Numbered from the stretch's first letter, positions 1,249-10,149 are shown. The stretch is 64,000 nt of DNA from an uncultured Clostridia bacterium (GCA_947646415.1 CANSGN010000010.1:1399-65398), one strand, 5' to 3'. The notes: a model not told the origin generated them from the letters alone. A program made the numbers and translations.

Positions 1249-1716
1249 ATGCGAAAGTCAAACAGAGAAATACACGGCTTGGATAAAATAGTTGACATTA
1301 TACAAAACACAAATACAATAAGGTTGGGTATAAATGACTCCCCTTACCCTTATGTTGTGCCGGTTTCTTTTGGTTTTGACGTGCAAGATGACAAACTTTG
1401 TTTTTATTTTCATGGTGCAACCATAGGTAAAAAAGTACAGCTTTTAGATAAAAACCCGTTGGTTTGCGTGGAAGGAGACATTTTTCACCGTTATATGGAT
1501 ACGATAAAATCGGTAACTTGCCTTTACGAAAGTTTTATAGCATACGGCAAATGCACTTTACTGAACGGAAATGATGCTATCCACGGCCTAAAACAAATTT
1601 TAAAGCATTGCAATTATTCCGACCACACCTTTAATACGGATGTTTTACCTATAGTAAATGTATATAAAATAGAGGTAGAAAGCATAACCGCAAAACACAG
1701 GACAAAAGATAATTGA
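1249..1716 (+). CDS. Pyridoxamine 5'-phosphate oxidase-family FMN-binding split-barrel protein (NimA-like)
   Basis: 155-aa ORF. The pattern TIRLGINDSPYPYVVPVSFGF...LCFYFHGATIGKK is typical of the PNPOx-like/Nim family. An RBS (TAGGTG) lies upstream. Confidence 0.65.
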   Translation: MRKSNREIHGLDKIVDIIQNTNTIRLGINDSPYPYVVPVSFGFDVQDDKLCFYFHGATIGKKVQLLDKNPLVCVEGDIFHRYMDTIKSVTCLYESFIAYGKCTLLNGNDAIHGLKQILKHCNYSDHTFNTDVLPIVNVYKIEVESITAKHRTKDN

Positions 1717-1920
1717 TATATAATTAAAAATATATAAAATATGATATATAAATATTTTTACAATTATATATCTGCAATGCAGTTTGCTAATCTCTATTTG
1801 TTGTAGATAAACGTAAAATATAATTTGTTAAAAATAAAAAGAAAATTTTAAAATAACACTTACCTATTTACTTGACATTACCGTAAATTTTGTATATACT
1901 TTTTAGGTAACCGAATAAAT

Positions 1921-1997
1921 GGACGATTAGCTCAGCTGGATAGAGCGTTGCGCTACGGACGCAAAGGTCAGGGGTTCGAATCCCTTATCGTTCACCA
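1921..1997 (+). tRNA. tRNA-Arg (anticodon ACG), CCA encoded
   Basis: Hand-folded cloverleaf. Acceptor GGACGAT/ATCGTTC. D arm GCTC-AGCTGGATA-GAGC. Anticodon stem TTGCG/CGCAA with loop CTACGGA. T arm AGGGG-TTCGAAT-CCCTT. Discriminator A followed by CCA. Confidence 0.93.
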
Positions 1998-2010
1998 TAA
2001 GGGAATAAGA

Positions 2011-2049
2011 CGAACTCTTTATTTAGTAAGGAGTTCGGTTTATTTTTTA
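2011..2049 (+). terminator. Rho-independent terminator after tRNA-Arg
   Basis: Stem CGAACTC (2011-2017) / GAGTTCG (2031-2037), followed by GTTTATTTTTT. Confidence 0.7.
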
Positions 2050-2061
2050 TGAATGATTGTT

Positions 2062-2196
2062 ATGGAGTAAAATCAAGACAGTGGAGAAAAAACGGAAAAA
2101 ACTTATTATGTTAGGTCTGGTTGGATGGTTTTTTCAAATGGAAAATTAAAAAGTAATACATTAATAGCAGGATGGTGGTTAAATGAAGTTGTTTGA
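2062..2196 (+). pseudogene. 5'-truncated remnant of the cassette's larger gene (last ~38 codons only)
   Basis: It translates to SGEKTEKTYYVRSGWMVFSNGKLKSNTLIAGWWLNEVV*, against the C-termini of 2709-3326 and 3833-4450. An in-frame TAA lies just upstream and there is no start codon. A 1-nt length difference occurs at the homology boundary. Confidence 0.85.
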
Positions 2197-2551
2197 TAAG
2201 GTTAAAGTGTTGGTTTCAAAGCCAGAATATGAAAAATGGGAAATTTTTAAAGGAATGGTAGGGACAATTATTGATGCAGAAATACGTTTTAGGGCATTTC
2301 AAGTTATCTTTACTGACCCTACACCAGTAACATCAGAAAATTGGGATTATATTGATTTAAAAGATGATATTTTGTGCTATATTCATGTAAAAGATTTGGA
2401 AGTTGTTGAAGAAAGCGATTGCACAGATGAGTATTTGTTAGAAAATTTACCAAATCAAGATATAAGATGGTTTTGTAAGGTGGAGGATGGTTTTATAATC
2501 AACTTGCTTGGCGAAAAATTGAACAAAATACCTTACGATTATGACAGTTAA
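2183..2551 (+). CDS. Cassette small protein, copy A (immunity/antitoxin-like; DUF4926-like N-terminus), orphan
   Basis: 122-aa ORF. Its ATG lies inside the ...AAATGAAGTTGTTTGA overlap with the remnant upstream. It is a paralog of 3313-3675 and 4437-4799. Confidence 0.8.
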   Translation: MKLFDKVKVLVSKPEYEKWEIFKGMVGTIIDAEIRFRAFQVIFTDPTPVTSENWDYIDLKDDILCYIHVKDLEVVEESDCTDEYLLENLPNQDIRWFCKVEDGFIINLLGEKLNKIPYDYDS

Positions 2552-2708
2552 TTTATCAAGAATTTAATTTGATAATTAATTTTATTTTTAACAAGCTTTA
2601 AAATAACATTTTTTTATACAATAATGCAAAAGAATTTGTCATAAAACCATTTAAAAATAATTTTTATGCCTTACAATATAGTTAAAAAATATAATTGTGA
2701 GGTGGAAA

Positions 2709-3326
2709 ATGTTAGCAGAGTGGACAAGCAAATGGATTAAAGTTTTTGACAAATTAAACGATGTTGTCATTGATGATTTTGATTATGAACATGGTATACA
2801 TGGTCTAATAACAACTAAACATTGTGTAAAATGTATTGCAGCAAATCAGTGTTGGTTTGTAGATGAAAAAAATAAAAAACCTGAACAAATGGAATATAGC
2901 TTTGAAGAGATATTAAAGGATACAAAGAATAAAAGAGGGTTGTACCATTATAATTGTCATTGCAAAGAAATAAACATTCCTACCCCCAAAGAATCTGAAA
3001 TAAAATTAATTATTCCCGAAGGAAAAATTGGATGGTTGTTTAAAGATAAAGAGGGATTGGTAAAAAAAGCGTTGGGTTATGAGCCAAATGATGACTTCTT
3101 AGAATATTTTAAAAAACAGGTTTTGAAAAGTTATTGCCAAGGTAAATATTACATATTAGGCATTGATGAACATGGTGTGGCAATAAGTGTTAAAGTAGAA
3201 ATCAACGGCAGTGGAGAAAAAACGGGGAAAACTTATTATGTTAGGTCAGGCTGGATGGTTTTTTCAAATGGAAAATTAAAAAATAATACACTAATAGCAG
3301 GATGGTGGTTAAATGAAGTTGTTTGA
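2709..3326 (+). CDS. Cassette large protein, copy 1 (MuF-like CxxC...HxNCxC knuckle plus a variable C-terminal putative toxin domain)
   Basis: The ORF track starts at GTG 2697. ATG 2709 is preferred because GAGGTGG sits 4-10 nt upstream. Motifs present: HCVKCIAANQCWF and LYHYNCHC. The stop overlaps the next gene's start by 14 nt. Confidence 0.8.
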   Translation: MLAEWTSKWIKVFDKLNDVVIDDFDYEHGIHGLITTKHCVKCIAANQCWFVDEKNKKPEQMEYSFEEILKDTKNKRGLYHYNCHCKEINIPTPKESEIKLIIPEGKIGWLFKDKEGLVKKALGYEPNDDFLEYFKKQVLKSYCQGKYYILGIDEHGVAISVKVEINGSGEKTGKTYYVRSGWMVFSNGKLKNNTLIAGWWLNEVV

Positions 3327-3675
3327 TAAGGTTAAAGTTTTAGAGTCAAGACAAAGATATAGTGAAAGAGAAATATATAAAGGAATGATTGGCACAATAA
3401 TAGATGCTGAAATTAGAGGAAGGACATTTAATGTGATTTTTACTGACCCGACTCCATTTACCGAGGAAACTATGTATTCAATCAAACCCGATATTATTTG
3501 TGCAATTTACATTAAAGACTTGGAAGTTGTAGAAGAGAGCGATTGCACAGATGATTATTTATTGATAAATTTACCAAAACAAAATCCAAAATGGTTTTGT
3601 AAAGTAGAAGATGGATATATAATCAACTTGCTTGGCGAAAAATTGAATAAGATTCCTTATGATTATGACAGTTAA
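3313..3675 (+). CDS. Cassette small protein, copy B (immunity/antitoxin-like)
   Basis: 120-aa ORF. It is translationally coupled by a 14-nt overlap. The KLFDKVKVL...KGM.GTIIDAEI...VIFTDP...KDLEVVE pattern resembles DUF4926. Confidence 0.8.
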   Translation: MKLFDKVKVLESRQRYSEREIYKGMIGTIIDAEIRGRTFNVIFTDPTPFTEETMYSIKPDIICAIYIKDLEVVEESDCTDDYLLINLPKQNPKWFCKVEDGYIINLLGEKLNKIPYDYDS

Positions 3676-3832
3676 TTTATCAAGAATTTAATTTGATAAT
3701 TAATTTTATTTTTAACAAGCTTTAAAATAACATTTTTTTATACAATAATGCAAAAGAATTTGTCATAAAACCATTTAAAAATAATTTTTATGCCTTACAA
3801 TATAGTTAAAAAATATAATTGTGAGGTGGAAA

Positions 3833-4450
3833 ATGTTAGCAGAGTGGACAAGCAAATGGATTAAAGTTTTTGACAAATTAAACGATGTTGTCATTGATGA
3901 TTTTGATTATGAACATGGTATACATGGTCTAATAACAACTAAACATTGTGTAAAATGTATTGCAGCAAATCAGTGTTGGTTTGTGGATGAAAAAAATAAA
4001 AAACCTGAACGAATGGAATATAGCTTTGAAGAGATATTAAAGGATACAAAGAATAAAAGAGGATTATATCATTATAATTGTCATTGCAAAGAAATAAACA
4101 TTCCTGCTCCCAAAGAATCTGAAATAGAATTAATTATTCCCGAAGGAAAAATTGGATGGTTGTTTAATGATAAAGAGGGATTGGTAAAAAAAGCTTTGGG
4201 TTATGAACCAAACGAAGAATTTTTAGAATATTTTAAAAAACAAGTTTTGAAGAGTTATTGTAAAGGACAATATTATATATTAAATATCAATAAGTATGGT
4301 GTATCCATAAGTATTAAAGTTAAAGTTGAAGGTAGTGGAGAAAAAACGGGGAAAACTTATTATGTTAGGTCAGGCTGGATGGTTTTTTCAAATGGAAAAT
4401 TAAAGAGTAATACATTAATAGCAGGATGGTGGTTAAATGAAGTTGTTTGA
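3833..4450 (+). CDS. Cassette large protein, copy 2
   Basis: The ORF track starts at 3821, with ATG 3833 behind GAGGTGG. The first ~100 aa are nearly identical to copy 1. A divergent patch lies at aa ~148-169. Confidence 0.8.
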   Translation: MLAEWTSKWIKVFDKLNDVVIDDFDYEHGIHGLITTKHCVKCIAANQCWFVDEKNKKPERMEYSFEEILKDTKNKRGLYHYNCHCKEINIPAPKESEIELIIPEGKIGWLFNDKEGLVKKALGYEPNEEFLEYFKKQVLKSYCKGQYYILNINKYGVSISIKVKVEGSGEKTGKTYYVRSGWMVFSNGKLKSNTLIAGWWLNEVV

Positions 4451-4799
4451 CAAAGTTAAAGTTTTAGTTTCAAAGCCAGAATATGAAGAGCAAGAAGTTT
4501 ATAAAGGAATGGTAGGGACAATAATTGATGCAGAAATTAGAGGAAGGTCGTTTCATGTGATTTTTACTGACCCCACACCATTTACTGAAGAAACGATGTA
4601 TTCAATTAAACCAGATATTTTATGCGTTATAGATATAAAAGACTTGGAAGTTGTTGAAGAGAGCGATTGCACAGATGATTATTTATTGATAAATTTACCA
4701 AAACAAAATCCAAAATGGTTTTGTAAAGTAGAAGATGGATATATAATCAACTTGCTTGGCGAAAAATTGAATAAGATTCCTTACGATTACGATAGTTGA
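4437..4799 (+). CDS. Cassette small protein, copy C (immunity/antitoxin-like, mosaic of A and B)
   Basis: 120-aa ORF with a 14-nt overlap with 3833-4450. Confidence 0.8.
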   Translation: MKLFDKVKVLVSKPEYEEQEVYKGMVGTIIDAEIRGRSFHVIFTDPTPFTEETMYSIKPDILCVIDIKDLEVVEESDCTDDYLLINLPKQNPKWFCKVEDGYIINLLGEKLNKIPYDYDS

Positions 4800-4906
4800 T
4801 TTATTAGGAATTTCTATTATCTGAAGTTGTCGCCAAGCAGCCCGTAGGGATATTTGACAGCAACTAATGCTAATTCAAACTATTTGTAAAATTTGAAAAT
4901 CTAATG

Positions 4907-4942
4907 GTGCTATGGTCTTAAATGACTATGGCACTATTTTTT
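4907..4942 (+). terminator. Rho-independent terminator closing the cassette array
   Basis: Stem GTGCTATGGTC (4907-4917) / GACTATGGCAC (4924-4934), followed by TATTTTTT. Confidence 0.75.
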
Positions 4943-5231
4943 ATGTGTTTTAATCTAGATTTTTTATGTGTTAAAAACCAATTTAGCCTAAATTGTGCCA
5001 AAATTTGACATTTGTTTTTTGCTATTGCCAATTTTTGGTAATAGTTTTATAAAATTAGTAATCATTATCACTTTTTACATAAATTTTTCTTTTCATATTA
5101 TAATGCTATATGATTTGAATAATTAAACGTATAATAATAACTCTAAGTTTTTTAAACTAAACAAAAGGTATAAAATAAAGTAAAAAGTAGCAAAAATATG
5201 TGATAAAAATTTTACATAGATTTTTACTTGA

Positions 5232-5290
5232 ACACAACATATTGTGGTCAAATTGCCAAAATCTCAAAAAATGACCACAATATATTGATT
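5232..5290 (+). promoter_or_regulatory. Two NrdR-box-like palindromes upstream of nrdD
   Basis: ACACAACATATTGTGG (5232-5247) and CCACAATATATTGATT (5275-5290), compared with the recalled consensus acaCwAtATaTwGtgt. Their centres are ~43 bp apart. Box 2 abuts the -35. Confidence 0.7.
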
Positions 5291-5297
5291 TTTCCTC

Positions 5298-5326
5298 TTG
5301 ACAACGAATATAATTTGTTGTATACT
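5298..5326 (+). promoter_or_regulatory. Sigma-70/SigA-type promoter of nrdDG
   Basis: TTGACA (5298-5303), a 17-nt spacer, then TATACT (5321-5326). RBS AAGGAG lies before the ATG at 5370. Confidence 0.7.
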
Positions 5327-5369
5327 GAATGAGCAATATCAGTAAACCCAAAGAAGAAGGAGAAATTTT

Positions 5370-7679
5370 ATGATTAAAAGCATTATTAAAAGAGATGGCA
5401 GAAAAGTTCCATTTAATTTGCAAAAAATTGCCGATGCTATTTTTAAAGCAGCAGCATCTGTTGGAGGAAGCGACCATGATACCGCATTAGAGCTTGCAGT
5501 TGAGGCTTGCGAGTATTTGGAAAGCCAAGGCAACACTACCCCAACCGTGGAGGAAATCCAAAACGCAGTTGAAAAGACATTAATTGAAAAGGGACACGCA
5601 CAAACTGCCAAAAACTATATTCTTTACAGAGCAAACCGTACAAGAGCAAGAGAAATGAAAACTTCTCTTATGGAAATCTATAAAGATTTGACTTTTAAAG
5701 ATGCAAAAGATAATGATATAAAAAGAGAGAACGCTAACATTGACGGCGACACTGCAATGGGTACAATGTTAAAGTATGGTAGCGAAGGTGCAAAACAATT
5801 TAACAAATTGTTTGTATTGCGTCCTGAACATGCAAAAGCTCATGAAGAGGGAGACATTCATATTCATGACCTAGACTTTTTGACATTGACTGAAACTTGC
5901 TGTCAAATAGACCTAATCAAATTGTTTAAAGGCGGTTTTTGTACCGGACACGGCTTTTTGAGAGAGCCTAACGACATAGCATCCTACTCCGCACTTGCAG
6001 CAATAGCTATTCAATCCAACCAAAATGACCAACACGGCGGACAAAGTATTCCTAACTTTGAATACGCAATGGCTATCGGTGTAGCAAAATCTTATAAGAA
6101 AATTTACAAGAAAAATCTTATCAAGGCTTTGGATATTTACGAAATCGAAAACGCTGAGGAAGTTGCTAACAATATAACAAATTCTCTTGCAGAAAAGGAT
6201 ATCGTTCCTAAGCTAGAGAAAGACGATTATATGATTGAAGAGGCAAAAGAGCTTGCAAAAATCGGTATTAAAGACGAAAGTATCAAAAAAATTCAAAAGT
6301 TCACAAAGAAATATTCGGAGCAAGAAATTGACCGTGCAACATACCAAGCAATGGAGGCTTTTGTTCACAATTTGAACACAATGCACTCTAGAGCAGGCGC
6401 ACAAATTCCGTTTAGCAGTATCAACTACGGTACAGATACCACCCCTGAAGGCAGACTTGTTATTAAAAACATTATGCTAGCAACAGATGCAGGTTTGGGT
6501 AACGGCGAAACAGCTATCTTCCCTATCCACATATTTAAAGTAAAAGAGGGTATCAACTACAATAAACAAGACCCTAACTACGATTTGTTTAAACTTGCTA
6601 TCAGAGTATCTGCAAAAAGGTTATTCCCTAACTTCTCGTTTATTGATGCTCCATTTAACCTACAATACTACAAAGAGGGCGACTACAGGACTGAAATAGC
6701 TTACATGGGTTGCCGTACAAGGGTTGCAGGTAACGTTTATGACAAGGATAGAGAGATTGTTACTCAAAGAGGTAACTTATCATTCACATCAATCAACTTG
6801 CCTAGACTTGGTATTCTTGCAAAAGGCGATTTAAACAAATTCTATGAAATGCTTGACGAAAAACTTAATTTGGTTTCCGACCAATTAATGGACAGATACA
6901 AAATTCAAGCTAAAAAGAGAGTTAAAAACTATCCGTTCCTAATGGGTCAAGGTGTATGGCTAGACAGCGATAAGCTAGACTACGAAGATGAAATCGGCGA
7001 GATTTTAAAACATGGTACATTGTCTATCGGATTTATCGGTCTTGCAGAGTGCTTGGTAGCACTTACAGGCAAACACCACGGAGAGAGTGAGGAATGTCAA
7101 AAACTAGGTTTGGAAATCATCAAACACATGAGAGATTTTACTGAAAAACTTTGCGAGGAAACTCACTTTAACTACTCTGTTATCGCAACTCCTGCAGAAG
7201 GACTATCCGGCAGATTTGTAAGAATCGATGCTAAAAAGTTCGGTAAAATAAAAGGCATTACAGATAGAGAATATTATACAAACTCTTTCCACGTTCCTGT
7301 TTATTACAATATTGCAGCTTTGGATAAAATCAAAATCGAAGCACCTTATCACGCTTTGACAAACGGCGGACATATCAGCTATATCGAGCTTGACGGCGAC
7401 CCTCTAAAGAACTTGGATGCTTTTGAAGCTTGCGTACGTTGCATGAAAGAGGCCGGTATAGGATATGGCTCAATCAACCACCCAATAGATCGTGACCCTG
7501 TTTGCGGATATAATGGAATAATCGATAATGTTTGTCCTAAATGTGGCAGAAAAGAGGGCGACGGCAAACAAAACTTTGAGAGAATCCGCAGAATTACAGG
7601 ATATTTGGTAGGTACTGTTGATAGATTTAACAATGCAAAACGTGCCGAAGTAAACGACAGAGTAAAACACCATGTGTAA
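5370..7679 (+). CDS. nrdD: Anaerobic ribonucleoside-triphosphate reductase (class III RNR)
   Basis: 769 aa. It has an N-terminal ATP-cone, a C-terminal Zn ribbon (CPKCG) and the glycyl-radical motif RRITGYLVG. Confidence 0.95.
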   Translation: MIKSIIKRDGRKVPFNLQKIADAIFKAAASVGGSDHDTALELAVEACEYLESQGNTTPTVEEIQNAVEKTLIEKGHAQTAKNYILYRANRTRAREMKTSLMEIYKDLTFKDAKDNDIKRENANIDGDTAMGTMLKYGSEGAKQFNKLFVLRPEHAKAHEEGDIHIHDLDFLTLTETCCQIDLIKLFKGGFCTGHGFLREPNDIASYSALAAIAIQSNQNDQHGGQSIPNFEYAMAIGVAKSYKKIYKKNLIKALDIYEIENAEEVANNITNSLAEKDIVPKLEKDDYMIEEAKELAKIGIKDESIKKIQKFTKKYSEQEIDRATYQAMEAFVHNLNTMHSRAGAQIPFSSINYGTDTTPEGRLVIKNIMLATDAGLGNGETAIFPIHIFKVKEGINYNKQDPNYDLFKLAIRVSAKRLFPNFSFIDAPFNLQYYKEGDYRTEIAYMGCRTRVAGNVYDKDREIVTQRGNLSFTSINLPRLGILAKGDLNKFYEMLDEKLNLVSDQLMDRYKIQAKKRVKNYPFLMGQGVWLDSDKLDYEDEIGEILKHGTLSIGFIGLAECLVALTGKHHGESEECQKLGLEIIKHMRDFTEKLCEETHFNYSVIATPAEGLSGRFVRIDAKKFGKIKGITDREYYTNSFHVPVYYNIAALDKIKIEAPYHALTNGGHISYIELDGDPLKNLDAFEACVRCMKEAGIGYGSINHPIDRDPVCGYNGIIDNVCPKCGRKEGDGKQNFERIRRITGYLVGTVDRFNNAKRAEVNDRVKHHV

Positions 7680-8277: not shown

Positions 8278-10149
8278 TTATATAAGTTCGCCCGATTTGT
8301 TGATTGTACCGTCGGAACACTTTATAACATAATTACCTGTTGAACTATTCCAACCACTACCTTTTTTGATGTTTGCCCAATCTTCCATTGTGCCACTGTA
8401 CTCAATTTCTTCAAGCAACAAACAATTTGCAAACGCACCTACACCAATGCTTTCAATCGTAAACGGAATTACTACTTTTGTCAAAACACTGTTTCCTGCA
8501 AATAGGTTATCCCCTATTTTGGTCATATTATAATTAATACTATTGTATGTTGTATAAGATGGTATGTTTGCAATTTTAGAATCCATTATATTTTCTTGGA
8601 ATATAACCTCGGCAGTTCTATCTTGAGTATTTAGCAAATAAATTGAGACACCCTCATTTTCTAAAATTATTCTGCCATCCGATGTAATATTGTTATTGCC
8701 GTCTCCATCCTCCGTGTATCCCCAAATAACAGGGCGGTTTGAAGAGTTCCAATCATCTTTCCAATCGTTCGGTTTAGCCTGTGCTTCACATTTTATAATT
8801 AATTTCAAGCAATATCTAAAAGCATCACTGCCTATTTTTTCAACTGTGTCAGGAATGATAATTTTACTTATTCTATCACTGCCTTGCAACATAGCTGCTC
8901 CAATAGAAGTAACGGTATCAGGTATTACAAAACTATCCAAAAGATTACATTCCGCAAAAGCACATGCACCTATTTCCTCAACGTCGACATCAATTTCGTA
9001 TTTACCGTTTTCCCTCCAATTTACAGCTGTCAAATTGCTACAAGCATAAAAAGCGTAATTGCCTATTTTTATTGTATTTCTTTGAATTTCTATTTGAGTG
9101 ATAACATCGTTCCTATAAAAAGCATAGCCCATGATGCTAGTAACATTGTATGGTTTACCATCATATTCGACAGCAGGTCGCAACTCGATATTATCGTTTG
9201 TAATAGGTTGTTTAGCTACAATAGCCTCATTACCTTTTATTCCGTATTTTACATATCCTCTGTTAGTATCAATAAAATAAATATATCCGTCATCCGCAAC
9301 ATTGTTATTGTCTGCATCCCACACAATAGGATAGCGACTAAATTGGTCTATCTTCCAATCATAGGTAATCCAACCTGCAGGTTTTTCTTTCGCTTGAGCG
9401 TATATTGTTATGCCGTAGCAGTTTTCAAACACACTTTCTTCTATATTTTTTACGCTTGACGGAATGCTTATTTCCGCCAAAGCCGAACAACCGTAAAATG
9501 CTCTTTCCTTAATTGTCACAACAGTTTTAGGTATATAAACATTTGATAACGCACGTTTGCCATAAAAAGCTTTGTCGCCTATTACGGTTACGGGTTTGCC
9601 GTCATAATACTCGCTGATTACAACTTCCGTAATCATATTTTCGATATCGCTTTCAACCCCGCTGACAGTGTAAGAATATCCGTCAGTGTTTAAGGAATAA
9701 ATAAGTCCCTCCGAGCCTTTCATAAAACCGCAAACAGTACATTTCCCGTTTTCAAATGTGTGATTTTCTTCTTCTTTGGAAATATCGCAAATATCGCTGC
9801 AATCGTACCAATGATTTTTATCGTTATACTTTATTGTATGATTATGCTTATTACCACACAAAGTACATATATTTTCGCTGTTATACGTATGAACAACTTT
9901 ATCCTTTTCATATCCGCAAACAGAACACTCCTGCCAATGATAGTTGTTATCAAAATTCAACTCAAAGCTATGCTCTGCATAGTCATTTTTTTCCTTACAT
10001 TTTTTCTTAGTACAGTCGTGCCAATGATGTGTTTCATTATTTGACCACTCTATATTCCATTCGTGGTTGTGCTTACAAGCAACCAAGCCCGTACACATAA
10101 CACAAAGCAACACGATTATAGCAAAAATTATAATTGATTTTTTTTTCAT
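8278..10149 (-). CDS. Surface lipoprotein: Cys/His-rich triple repeat plus BspA-type leucine-rich repeats (LRR_5-like)
   Basis: 623 aa. Signal peptide with lipobox LVAC. Three HxW..C...C..H modules are followed by repeated (A)F..C..L..I.IP..V..IG..AF units. Confidence 0.8.
   Translation of the reverse strand: MKKKSIIIFAIIVLLCVMCTGLVACKHNHEWNIEWSNNETHHWHDCTKKKCKEKNDYAEHSFELNFDNNYHWQECSVCGYEKDKVVHTYNSENICTLCGNKHNHTIKYNDKNHWYDCSDICDISKEEENHTFENGKCTVCGFMKGSEGLIYSLNTDGYSYTVSGVESDIENMITEVVISEYYDGKPVTVIGDKAFYGKRALSNVYIPKTVVTIKERAFYGCSALAEISIPSSVKNIEESVFENCYGITIYAQAKEKPAGWITYDWKIDQFSRYPIVWDADNNNVADDGYIYFIDTNRGYVKYGIKGNEAIVAKQPITNDNIELRPAVEYDGKPYNVTSIMGYAFYRNDVITQIEIQRNTIKIGNYAFYACSNLTAVNWRENGKYEIDVDVEEIGACAFAECNLLDSFVIPDTVTSIGAAMLQGSDRISKIIIPDTVEKIGSDAFRYCLKLIIKCEAQAKPNDWKDDWNSSNRPVIWGYTEDGDGNNNITSDGRIILENEGVSIYLLNTQDRTAEVIFQENIMDSKIANIPSYTTYNSINYNMTKIGDNLFAGNSVLTKVVIPFTIESIGVGAFANCLLLEEIEYSGTMEDWANIKKGSGWNSSTGNYVIKCSDGTINKSGELI

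Follow-up and report, generated by a model that had tools for sequence, protein, structure and literature searches.

A tandem array of a two-gene module between tRNA-Arg and nrdD

We analysed a 64,000-nt stretch of DNA (GCA_947646415.1, CANSGN010000010.1:1399-65398; hereafter the window) from a gut Christensenellaceae bacterium, a representative of a little studied lineage. Between the tRNA-Arg(ACG) gene and nrdD, the window harbours about 2.2-2.3 head-to-tail copies of a 1124/1130-bp unit composed of a large gene (L), coding for a predicted toxin, and a small gene (S), coding for its putative immunity protein. All genes of the array are located on the + strand in the order L remnant and S0, L1 and S1, L2 and S2, with nrdD following (Table 1). 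An earlier description made from the sequence alone (hereafter the initial annotation) had viewed the locus as an amplified toxin/immunity-like cassette. The homology of L and S to the DUF6883 and DUF4926 families and the genomic context of their relatives point to the same interpretation.

The head-to-tail repetition of a large and a small gene proposed in the initial annotation agrees with the L1/S1 and L2/S2 reading frames and with the spacing of the repeats. According to a direct repeat search combined with alignment, the starts of successive repeats are 1130 and then 1124 nt apart, so the previously proposed unit length of 1124 bp applies to the second interval but not to the first one, which is longer because S0 has two extra codons. 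Tandem Repeats Finder, with its maximum period of 500, reported no array. Two units are complete, while the third one retains just the end of its large gene: 39 codons and a stop (about 38 codons had been counted before), of which positions 2080-2193 were aligned by tblastn with L residues 168-205 at 95% identity. The S start codon lies 14 nt inside L in every unit, including the one with the remnant, exactly as had been described.

The spacers between the units have the same sequence, as noted previously, but their length is 157 nt if counted to the ATG of L, and the earlier value of 145 nt is valid only for a GTG at position 2697. L1 and L2 each have an ATG and a GAGGTGG ribosome-binding site (RBS) of their own, the latter also present in the initial annotation. 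The weak promoter that had been proposed within the spacer (TTTAAA-16-TACAAT) matches nine of the 12 consensus positions; since promoter-like matches are no commoner in the region than in shuffled sequences (30 vs 24.8 +/- 5.1), this candidate was rejected and is not treated as evidence here. A search for a regulatory RNA in the spacer gave no Rfam match, and the fold of the spacer is unremarkable (z = -1.41). Positions 1700-5400 contain only two terminator-like hairpins, one following the tRNA gene and the other, a strong one, closing the array, which corresponds to the boundaries suggested initially.

GC content of the array (window positions 2001-5000) is 25-31%, compared to 37-40% in the neighbouring nrdD. 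On the coding strand, the GC skew of this interval is strongly positive (0.18-0.49). An assembly artefact can be excluded, since the same arrangement is found in independent metagenome contigs: one of them (L048) contains S1-L2-S2-nrdD at 99.96% identity over 7 kb, and another (L049) contains L1-S1-L2-S2. The L2 sequence is recorded in five metagenome contigs.

Table 1. Features of the array and of its immediate borders, in window coordinates.
Feature	Position	Strand	Evidence and remarks
tRNA-Arg, anticodon ACG	1921-1997	+	ARAGORN; Rfam RF00005, 63.9 bits; identical in conspecific L001 and L058
Terminator-like hairpin and T run after the tRNA gene	2011-2047 (hairpin 2011-2037)	+	Pattern scan; kept in L001 and L058
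5'-truncated L remnant, last 39 codons and stop, no start	2077-2196	+	Translation
S0, orphan small gene, 122 aa, DUF4926-like	2183-2551	+	ORF call; sub-threshold Pfam match
Inter-unit spacer 1, 157 nt, GAGGTGG RBS at its end	2552-2708	+	100% identical to spacer 2
L1, predicted toxin, 205 aa from ATG	2709-3326	+	Residues 1-95 zinc-type; 96-205 DUF6883/BECR-Tox3-like
S1, 120 aa, DUF4926-like, SH3-fold model	3313-3675	+	ATG (3313) 14 nt inside L1 (stop end 3326)
Inter-unit spacer 2	3676-3832	+	Same sequence as spacer 1
L2, predicted toxin, 205 aa	3833-4450	+	91% identical to L1
S2, 120 aa, partner of L2	4437-4799	+	89% identical to S1; ATG (4437) inside L2 (stop end 4450)
Terminator-like hairpin, 15 pairs, and T run, end of array	4903-4948 (hairpin 4903-4938)	+	Pattern scan; kept in L001 and L058

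Predicted properties of the L and S proteins

The C-terminal part of L (residues ~96-205) is most likely a divergent DUF6883 ('BECR-Tox3') domain, i.e., a predicted RNase domain of the colicin-like group. Direct matches of the window proteins to the Pfam family (PF21814) are below its gathering score of 27 (16.7 bits, E = 0.0088 for L1 and 15.5 bits for L2), and only five out of 29 close L family members match DUF6883 even at E<0.1. This close family is small: 32 clusters (90% identity) were found among 5.8 billion proteins, their source being metagenome-assembled genomes (MAGs) labelled 'Clostridia bacterium'. A profile built from 29 members retrieved 350 proteins at E<=1e-3 from 1.84 billion representatives, and its positions ~100-198 align with the extreme C-termini of proteins of 300-2000 aa; against the complete library, matches of the profile reach E = 1e-9 to 1e-12. 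Ten of these long proteins were scanned with Pfam, which assigned the matched stretch to DUF6883; nine are above the gathering score, the exception (P0243) reaching 25.8 bits. The domain is carried by an RHS protein of 2022 aa (P0277), a CdiA-like DUF637 protein of 917 aa (P0297) and a PG_binding protein (P0254). It was also matched in 19 out of 41 short and intermediate relatives of L (best E = 8e-10). By the established logic of polymorphic toxins, a domain that forms the C-terminal end of RHS- and CdiA-type proteins is a toxin domain, and the DUF6883-like domain of L is likewise C-terminal.

Residues 96-205 of L align with DUF6883 domains with few gaps; K114, G123, G145, and G156 are invariant in this alignment while Y147, G188, and T194 are nearly so. 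The AlphaFold model of L has pLDDT 80-96 over residues 95-203 and contains helices at 106-121 followed by a long one at 128-143 and then four antiparallel strands. This modelled topology fits the 'pre-alpha + alpha-beta1-4' description of the colicin-like BECR RNase group, to which DUF6883 was assigned under the name 'BECR-Tox3' in a preprint (10.64898/2026.08.28.747851). According to the same source, a DUF4926 gene is commonly found directly after DUF6883 genes, which are also often fused to Phage_Mu_F, and the two families were proposed to form a toxin-immunity pair. The initial annotation recognised no characterised system of this composition, a statement which has to be revised as the pair had already been described in silico. 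The active site of colicin D-like BECR domains combines a residue of the N-terminal helix with a C-terminal Thr or Ser (PMC5512222). Judging by position, K114 (in the helix preceding the core) and T194 (in the last strand) would be the best active site candidates in L. Scans of the array proteins against NCBIfam and PADLOC gave no match, the PHROGs scan produced only weak matches to families of unknown function, and single-protein and profile searches of the PDB sequences found nothing meaningful.

S is most likely an SH3-like immunity or antitoxin protein of the DUF4926 type (PF16277). The Pfam match covers the N-terminal third of the window proteins and scores 16.9 bits in S0, 12.6 in S1 and 17.2 in S2, all below the gathering score of 29.1. 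Out of the 255 S relatives found, 49 were sampled and 31 of these matched DUF4926 (best E = 7.8e-6); two homologues (P0052 and P0057) carry a precomputed PF16277 match. The AlphaFold model (pLDDT 96) is an SH3/KOW-like barrel with a short helix-hairpin, for which Foldseek retrieved only generic SH3/KOW barrels from the PDB (E>=0.01). No DNA-binding Pfam family was matched in either the window S proteins or the sampled family members.

S is more conserved overall than L. Its last ~35 residues, LPxxNPxWWCKVEDGYIxNLxGEKKNKIPYDYxS (S1 residues 87-120, window positions 3571-3675), are almost invariant, S0 and S2 included, and are kept even in the partners of L proteins that are only 20-30% identical to those of the window (L056, L060, L062, and L064). 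This segment lies beyond the 57-aa Pfam DUF4926 domain, and such a near-invariant C-terminus is unusual for an immunity protein. The distances between L C-terminal domains correlate best with those between the N-terminal halves of S (r = 0.82, phylogeny being ignored). S, which is genetically linked and translationally coupled to L, would bind and neutralise it.

The N-terminal part of L (residues 1-95) contains a zinc-type motif, HCxxC...HxxCHC. H38, C39, C42, H80, C83, and H84 are invariant in the close L family, and C39, C42, H80, C83, and C85 are invariant even in distant relatives. The signature resembles a zinc knuckle, so the domain presumably binds zinc. The AlphaFold model is poor over this region. 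We see neither a hydrophobic N-terminus nor a known export domain in L on inspection of the sequence. The HCxxC...HPNCHC version found in relatives resembles the C-terminal end of MuF domains.

The connection to MuF, hinted at in the initial annotation, was pursued by several approaches. Phage_Mu_F is the sole recurrent Pfam match of the N-domain, being found below threshold in five out of 25 sequences (best E = 0.04). When the whole L model was compared with BFVD by Foldseek, a phage 'Minor capsid protein' came out on top (E = 2.4e-5, 163 columns) and another one ranked third. The third line of evidence is a viral contig (L047, 4656-7170) coding for a 218-aa L homologue of 43% identity, whose gene shares 14 nt with the 3' end of a P22-like portal gene (E = 8.5e-26) and is followed by three S genes. 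As muf genes are defined contextually, by their position immediately downstream of the portal gene (PMC5576092), the L homologue occupies the classic slot of the MuF minor head gene in this contig, which is the only one with an L relative among 2.9 million viral contigs. Searches aimed at the N-domain itself did not turn up a significant MuF match: hhalign of its profile with SPP1 gp7 was negative, the profile search found only unannotated proteins of ~60-200 aa (mostly ~190 aa), none of which is annotated as MuF, and the best hit of the PDB search was a Cas12f zinc finger (E = 0.06). On balance, a MuF origin of the N-domain is likely, while its membership in the family is not established.

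Conservation of the pair and its variation among strains

To see the module in other genomes, we used 46 loci with an L relative from gut Clostridia/Christensenellaceae MAGs. S is located within a few bases of L or overlaps it in all of them except for a few truncated or rearranged cases, and this adjacency is kept down to L identity of about 30%. The same order of genes occurs in ~185-aa relatives that are only 20-30% identical to L (L060 and L062), the partners of which are annotated as DUF4926.

Several loci have a single L followed by three or four tandem S-like genes (L026 6001-7697, L047 6514-8264, L056 7001-8737, and L064 6001-8549); in L064, two small genes of another family are interleaved among them. 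A divergent L' (199 aa, ~30% identical, with the canonical 'GQRI') was observed in two loci (L016 2657-3836 and L003 1395-2572), where it adjoins an L-S pair or a tRNA cluster and is followed by a 200-aa protein made of two DUF4926-like halves. L' is frameshifted in L003.

The module is surrounded by housekeeping genes that differ from locus to locus (the window, L054, L056, L058, L060, L062, and L064). No phage genes (portal, terminase) or secretion system genes were found near it in the window and six annotated chromosomal contexts, and tblastn of L and S against 50,697 phage records and 72,556 plasmids gave no match. The array of the window is flanked by tRNA-Arg upstream and nrdDG downstream, with no integrase gene adjacent.

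Proximity to tRNA genes is a recurrent feature. The module lies less than 500 bp from a tRNA gene, always on its 3' side, in 15 out of 46 loci and in the window (tRNA-near loci: L001, L003, L005, L009-L011, L015, L023, L027-L029, L034, L035, L039, L044, and L058), compared to ~2% expected by chance if there is roughly one tRNA gene per 50 kb. The tRNAs concerned have about ten identities: Arg-ACG, Arg-CCT, Val-TAC, Val-GAC, Asn, Thr, Leu-CAG, Leu-CAA, Leu-TAA, and a Glu cluster. The window contains no other copy of the tRNA-Arg 3' end, as would be expected of an attachment site, and no repeat of the tRNA 3' end brackets the module in the 17 tRNA-adjacent loci; a 22-nt repeat in L044 does not bracket it. 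In one locus (L054, 8858-12547), about 4.5 kb with genes for an HNH endonuclease and a large serine recombinase, located 1-3 kb downstream of the module, separate the latter from tRNA-Arg(CCT). The same tRNA gene is only 153 bp away from S in another locus (L015, 6959-7186), and the contrast suggests that a small mobile element has inserted into the tRNA flank in L054. Flanks of tRNA genes therefore look like insertion hotspots.

Strain comparison was one of the checks proposed in the initial annotation, and conspecific strains do differ both in the number of units and in their alleles; the genes are not fixed in a single copy. Three conspecific assemblies (the window, L001, and L058) are ~99-100% identical at the DNA level in the flanks of the array (HTH-PNPOx-tRNA-Arg on one side and nrdD-nrdG-LRR on the other), and have haplotypes with about 2.2, 1.2, and 1 units, respectively. 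L058 contains a single complete L+S pair, with an intact L in place of the remnant found in the window. L001 has a remnant with S, then L+S; its remnant was located by tblastn with L1 residues 163-205 (67% identical) and is 74% identical to that of the window. The L protein of L058 shares only 63-65% identity with L1 and L2, while its S (L058 7600-7968) is 92.6% identical to the orphan S0. As the remnant preceding S0 belongs to the L1/L2 type, unlike S0 with its L058 match, the first unit of the window is a recombinant mosaic. Short metagenome contigs suggest further orders, S1-L1-S1-L2-S2 and L2-S2-L2, with the caveat that repeats may be assembled incorrectly.

A mosaic is also seen between the complete units. 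Both have the same spacer and the same initial 152 nt of L (309 nt in total). Synonymous divergence (dS) is zero over this tract and 0.10 thereafter, reaches 0.67 in codons 101-165 and drops back to 0.13 at the 3' end of L; S1 and S2 show the same mosaic pattern. At the protein level, L1 and L2 differ in 18 amino acids, 12 of them within residues 144-166, and share the same domain. The 'variable C-terminal half' of the initial annotation is therefore an overstatement for proteins that are 91% identical. Swapping of unrelated toxin domains was rejected: the units are mosaics produced by recombination, with a low ratio of nonsynonymous to synonymous divergence (dN/dS). This ratio is 0.04-0.19 (<0.2) for whole genes and 0.10-0.36 in the variable segments, with the maximum of 0.36 in S, so positive selection in these segments was rejected too. 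The divergence within the array, under purifying selection, bears the signature of recurrent recombination or gene conversion between functional alleles and not that of recent neutral duplication.

A search for an empty site in metagenomes using the upstream PNPOx gene revealed three close loci, two of them ending at the repeat, and no clean empty site. A more distant locus (L067) has no homologue of NrdD, L or S within ~8.8 kb downstream of tRNA-Arg.

Origin and mode of action of the module

Overall, we consider it probable that the tandem array, which varies among strains, is made up of a two-gene toxin-immunity module that was derived from a phage MuF toxin and acts within the cell producing it. 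L would be a cytoplasmic RNase toxin whose N-domain is what remains of the delivery domain of MuF, a phage minor head protein. Since the ATG of S is inside the last 14 nt of L, translation of the two genes is expected to be coupled, and S would be made in step with L, in a fixed proportion, to bind it directly and block it. Such a module could operate inside the producing cell as a selfish element of the toxin-antitoxin or abortive infection-like kind, domesticated from a phage pair of MuF toxin and immunity protein. The array has probably expanded and contracted by unequal recombination and gene conversion, both between its units and with alleles of other strains, which would have left S0 as an orphan immunity gene. 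Cell-autonomous action is the most likely mode, and we hold this part of the proposal with moderate confidence, because phage, secretion, and integrase genes are missing from the vicinity and the relatives are scattered among housekeeping genes.

A number of observations weigh against this proposal. Both window proteins score under the Pfam gathering thresholds (16.7 bits vs 27 for L and 17 vs 29.1 for S). Structure prediction and comparison, also proposed in the initial annotation, produced confident models of the C-terminal half of L and of the S barrel as well as the BFVD match, but no significant PDB match for L: Foldseek found nothing at E<=1e-3 with no BECR toxin in the top 50, and a profile search of PDB sequences with the C-domain found nothing. 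BECR membership thus rests on topology and on the preprint, and the BECR fold is plausible for this domain. The canonical 'GQR' motif ('YGQRI') is replaced by a 'GVA'-type one ('HGVAI'-like) in the window clade, where the set of catalytic residues may have changed or disappeared. We found no experiment on any DUF6883 or DUF4926 protein in the literature. The lack of a DNA-binding domain in S and the toxin-first gene order are unlike most type II toxin-antitoxin (TA) systems. Multiplication of S, the orphan S0 and strain-specific alleles fit warfare between strains better than an intracellular module, and the kept MuF-like N-domain with its five invariant Cys and His residues suggests a retained role in delivery or binding.

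The last points lead to the strongest alternative, which we regard as possible but less likely, namely that L is a delivered weapon. The N-domain would dock L on the portal of a tailed phage, either resident or infecting, or of a phage-like particle, L would be packaged into the head and injected into another cell together with DNA, and S would protect the producer and its kin; the array with S0 would then be a collection of immunity genes against toxin alleles circulating in the species. MuF toxins have been proposed to be packaged and injected in this way (PMC5576092; PMC5512222). The L homologue located in the MuF slot of the viral contig and followed by three S genes speaks for delivery, as do the phage minor capsid protein being the best structural match of L and the correlated divergence of the L C-domain and the S N-terminal half. 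Three further facts favour it: S0 is 92.6% identical to the S that accompanies another L allele in a conspecific strain, several loci combine one L with three or four S genes, and the Cys and His residues of the N-domain are invariant across distant relatives. The near absence of phage context favours the cell-autonomous interpretation instead. Neither a portal, nor a terminase, nor any other phage gene accompanies the module in the chromosomal contexts described above, whereas 96% of genomic muf genes reside in prophages or their remnants (PMC5576092), and the family was met in just one viral contig. Moreover, the N-domain of ~95 aa corresponds to a fraction of MuF and is not significant against Phage_Mu_F or SPP1 gp7.

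We also speculate, regarding it as rather unlikely, that the miniature MuF-like zinc domain might allow the chromosomal L proteins to board the capsids of any portal-bearing phage multiplying in the cell, so that the progeny virions would inject the RNase into the next host. Onward spread of the phage would then be sabotaged, amounting to a population-level defence without a prophage, or competitors lacking S would be killed. Strain-specific L and S alleles, S0 and multi-S loci would in this case reflect an immunity arms race conducted via phage particles.

It is improbable that the array represents a prophage in decay that lacks any toxin function, where L is a leftover of MuF with a dead BECR-like domain, S is a passenger and the repeats are neutral duplications of a segment within a tRNA flank prone to recombination. 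The Q-R dyad of canonical DUF6883 is indeed absent from the window clade, an inactive PBECR domain was proposed for the MuF protein of phage Mu (gp30; PMC5512222), one unit is already truncated, and low GC content along with the position at the 3' flank of a tRNA gene is typical of acquired DNA. A neutral remnant, however, is not expected to persist under purifying selection on both genes, with L-S adjacency and coupling preserved at almost all of the 46 loci as well as in relatives of 20-30% identity, and with intact starts and ribosome-binding sites. K114 and T194 are, besides, conserved together with the versions of the domain borne by RHS and CdiA proteins.

Still less credible is the view of the units as silent spare tip/immunity cassettes, expressed after recombination via the 5' handle into a main gene in the manner of contact-dependent inhibition (CDI) and Rhs loci: the identical 309-nt tract, the orphan-like remnant with S0 and the mosaic dS would suit it, but L1 and L2 each have their own RBS and ATG, the homologues are complete ~200-aa proteins, just one complete pair is present in a related conspecific locus, and a longer gene sharing this N-terminal region (the 'main' gene envisaged in the initial annotation) was found neither in the databases nor, by tblastn, in the 64-kb window.

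Among the known systems, the closest is the DUF6883/DUF4926 pair of the preprint (10.64898/2026.08.28.747851), with which the module shares homology of the L C-domain, a DUF4926-like downstream gene, the predicted topology and the link to MuF. It differs in that the window proteins are sub-threshold, their clade lacks GQR, S has an additional C-terminal segment, and the module is tandem and strain-variable. MuF toxins (Jamet et al., 2017, PMC5576092) similarly have a C-terminal toxin domain and a small (<150 aa) immunity ORF directly downstream. The relative located right after a portal gene and the weak MuF-like signal in the sequence and structure of the N-domain add to this likeness, while the short N-domain with no significant MuF match and the location of the window module and most of its relatives outside prophages, away from portal and terminase genes, set the module apart from muf genes. 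The PBECR/MuF-C domains of phage polyvalent proteins (Iyer et al., 2017, PMC5512222) are predicted BECR RNases which are fused to MuF or occur solo; their active site, with a residue from the N-terminal helix together with a C-terminal Thr or Ser, is comparable to the K114 and T194 candidates. Unlike them, L has no conserved His, with Lys at the candidate position, and is encoded next to a dedicated immunity gene in a chromosomal context.

CDI (cdiA-CT/cdiI) and Rhs orphan arrays are also composed of tandem units with a truncated toxin gene next to an intact immunity gene and conserved recombination tracts, and the DUF6883 domain itself occurs on RHS and DUF637/CdiA-like proteins. Here, in contrast, the window has no main gene, the units are complete and independently translatable, the truncated unit is upstream rather than downstream, and a single toxin family is present throughout. 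Type II TA systems of the RelE/ParE superfamily, e.g., the toxin-first HigBA, resemble the module as small coupled pairs of variable copy number found among housekeeping genes, with no secretion signal and no delivery genes nearby; the differences are the SH3-like S with no recognisable DNA-binding domain, the extra zinc-type N-domain of L and the lack of a RelE-type match. As for the colicin D and E5 tRNases, DUF6883 was put in the 'colicin-like' BECR group and the modelled topology of L is alike, but neither sequence searches nor Foldseek matched L to solved colicin or CdiA-CT structures.

The pairing of the two domains and their association with MuF were thus already described computationally, and the array does not constitute a new category. 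What is notable about it is the tandem amplification, the variation of alleles and copy number within a species, and the miniature N-domain. If our proposal is true, a phage head toxin module has been reduced to a 95-aa remnant that carries an RNase tip and has become fixed in the chromosomes of bacteria. This locus also provides material for a first experiment on DUF6883/DUF4926: two toxins that are 91% identical, three graded immunity variants and a conspecific allele pair of 64% identity, a set which would permit mapping of the specificity determinants.

Some minor features were noticed around the array. Identical, strong promoter-like sites, TTGACA-17-TATACT (11/12), are located at 1872-1900 and 5298-5326, in front of tRNA-Arg and nrdD, respectively, and the 570 nt upstream of nrdD are ~99-100% conserved across the three conspecific assemblies. 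Downstream of nrdG, a gene on the - strand (window 8278-10149), kept in the conspecific loci, codes for a protein of 623 aa in which LRR_5 (BspA-like) repeats are combined with several N-terminal CxxC...H motifs.

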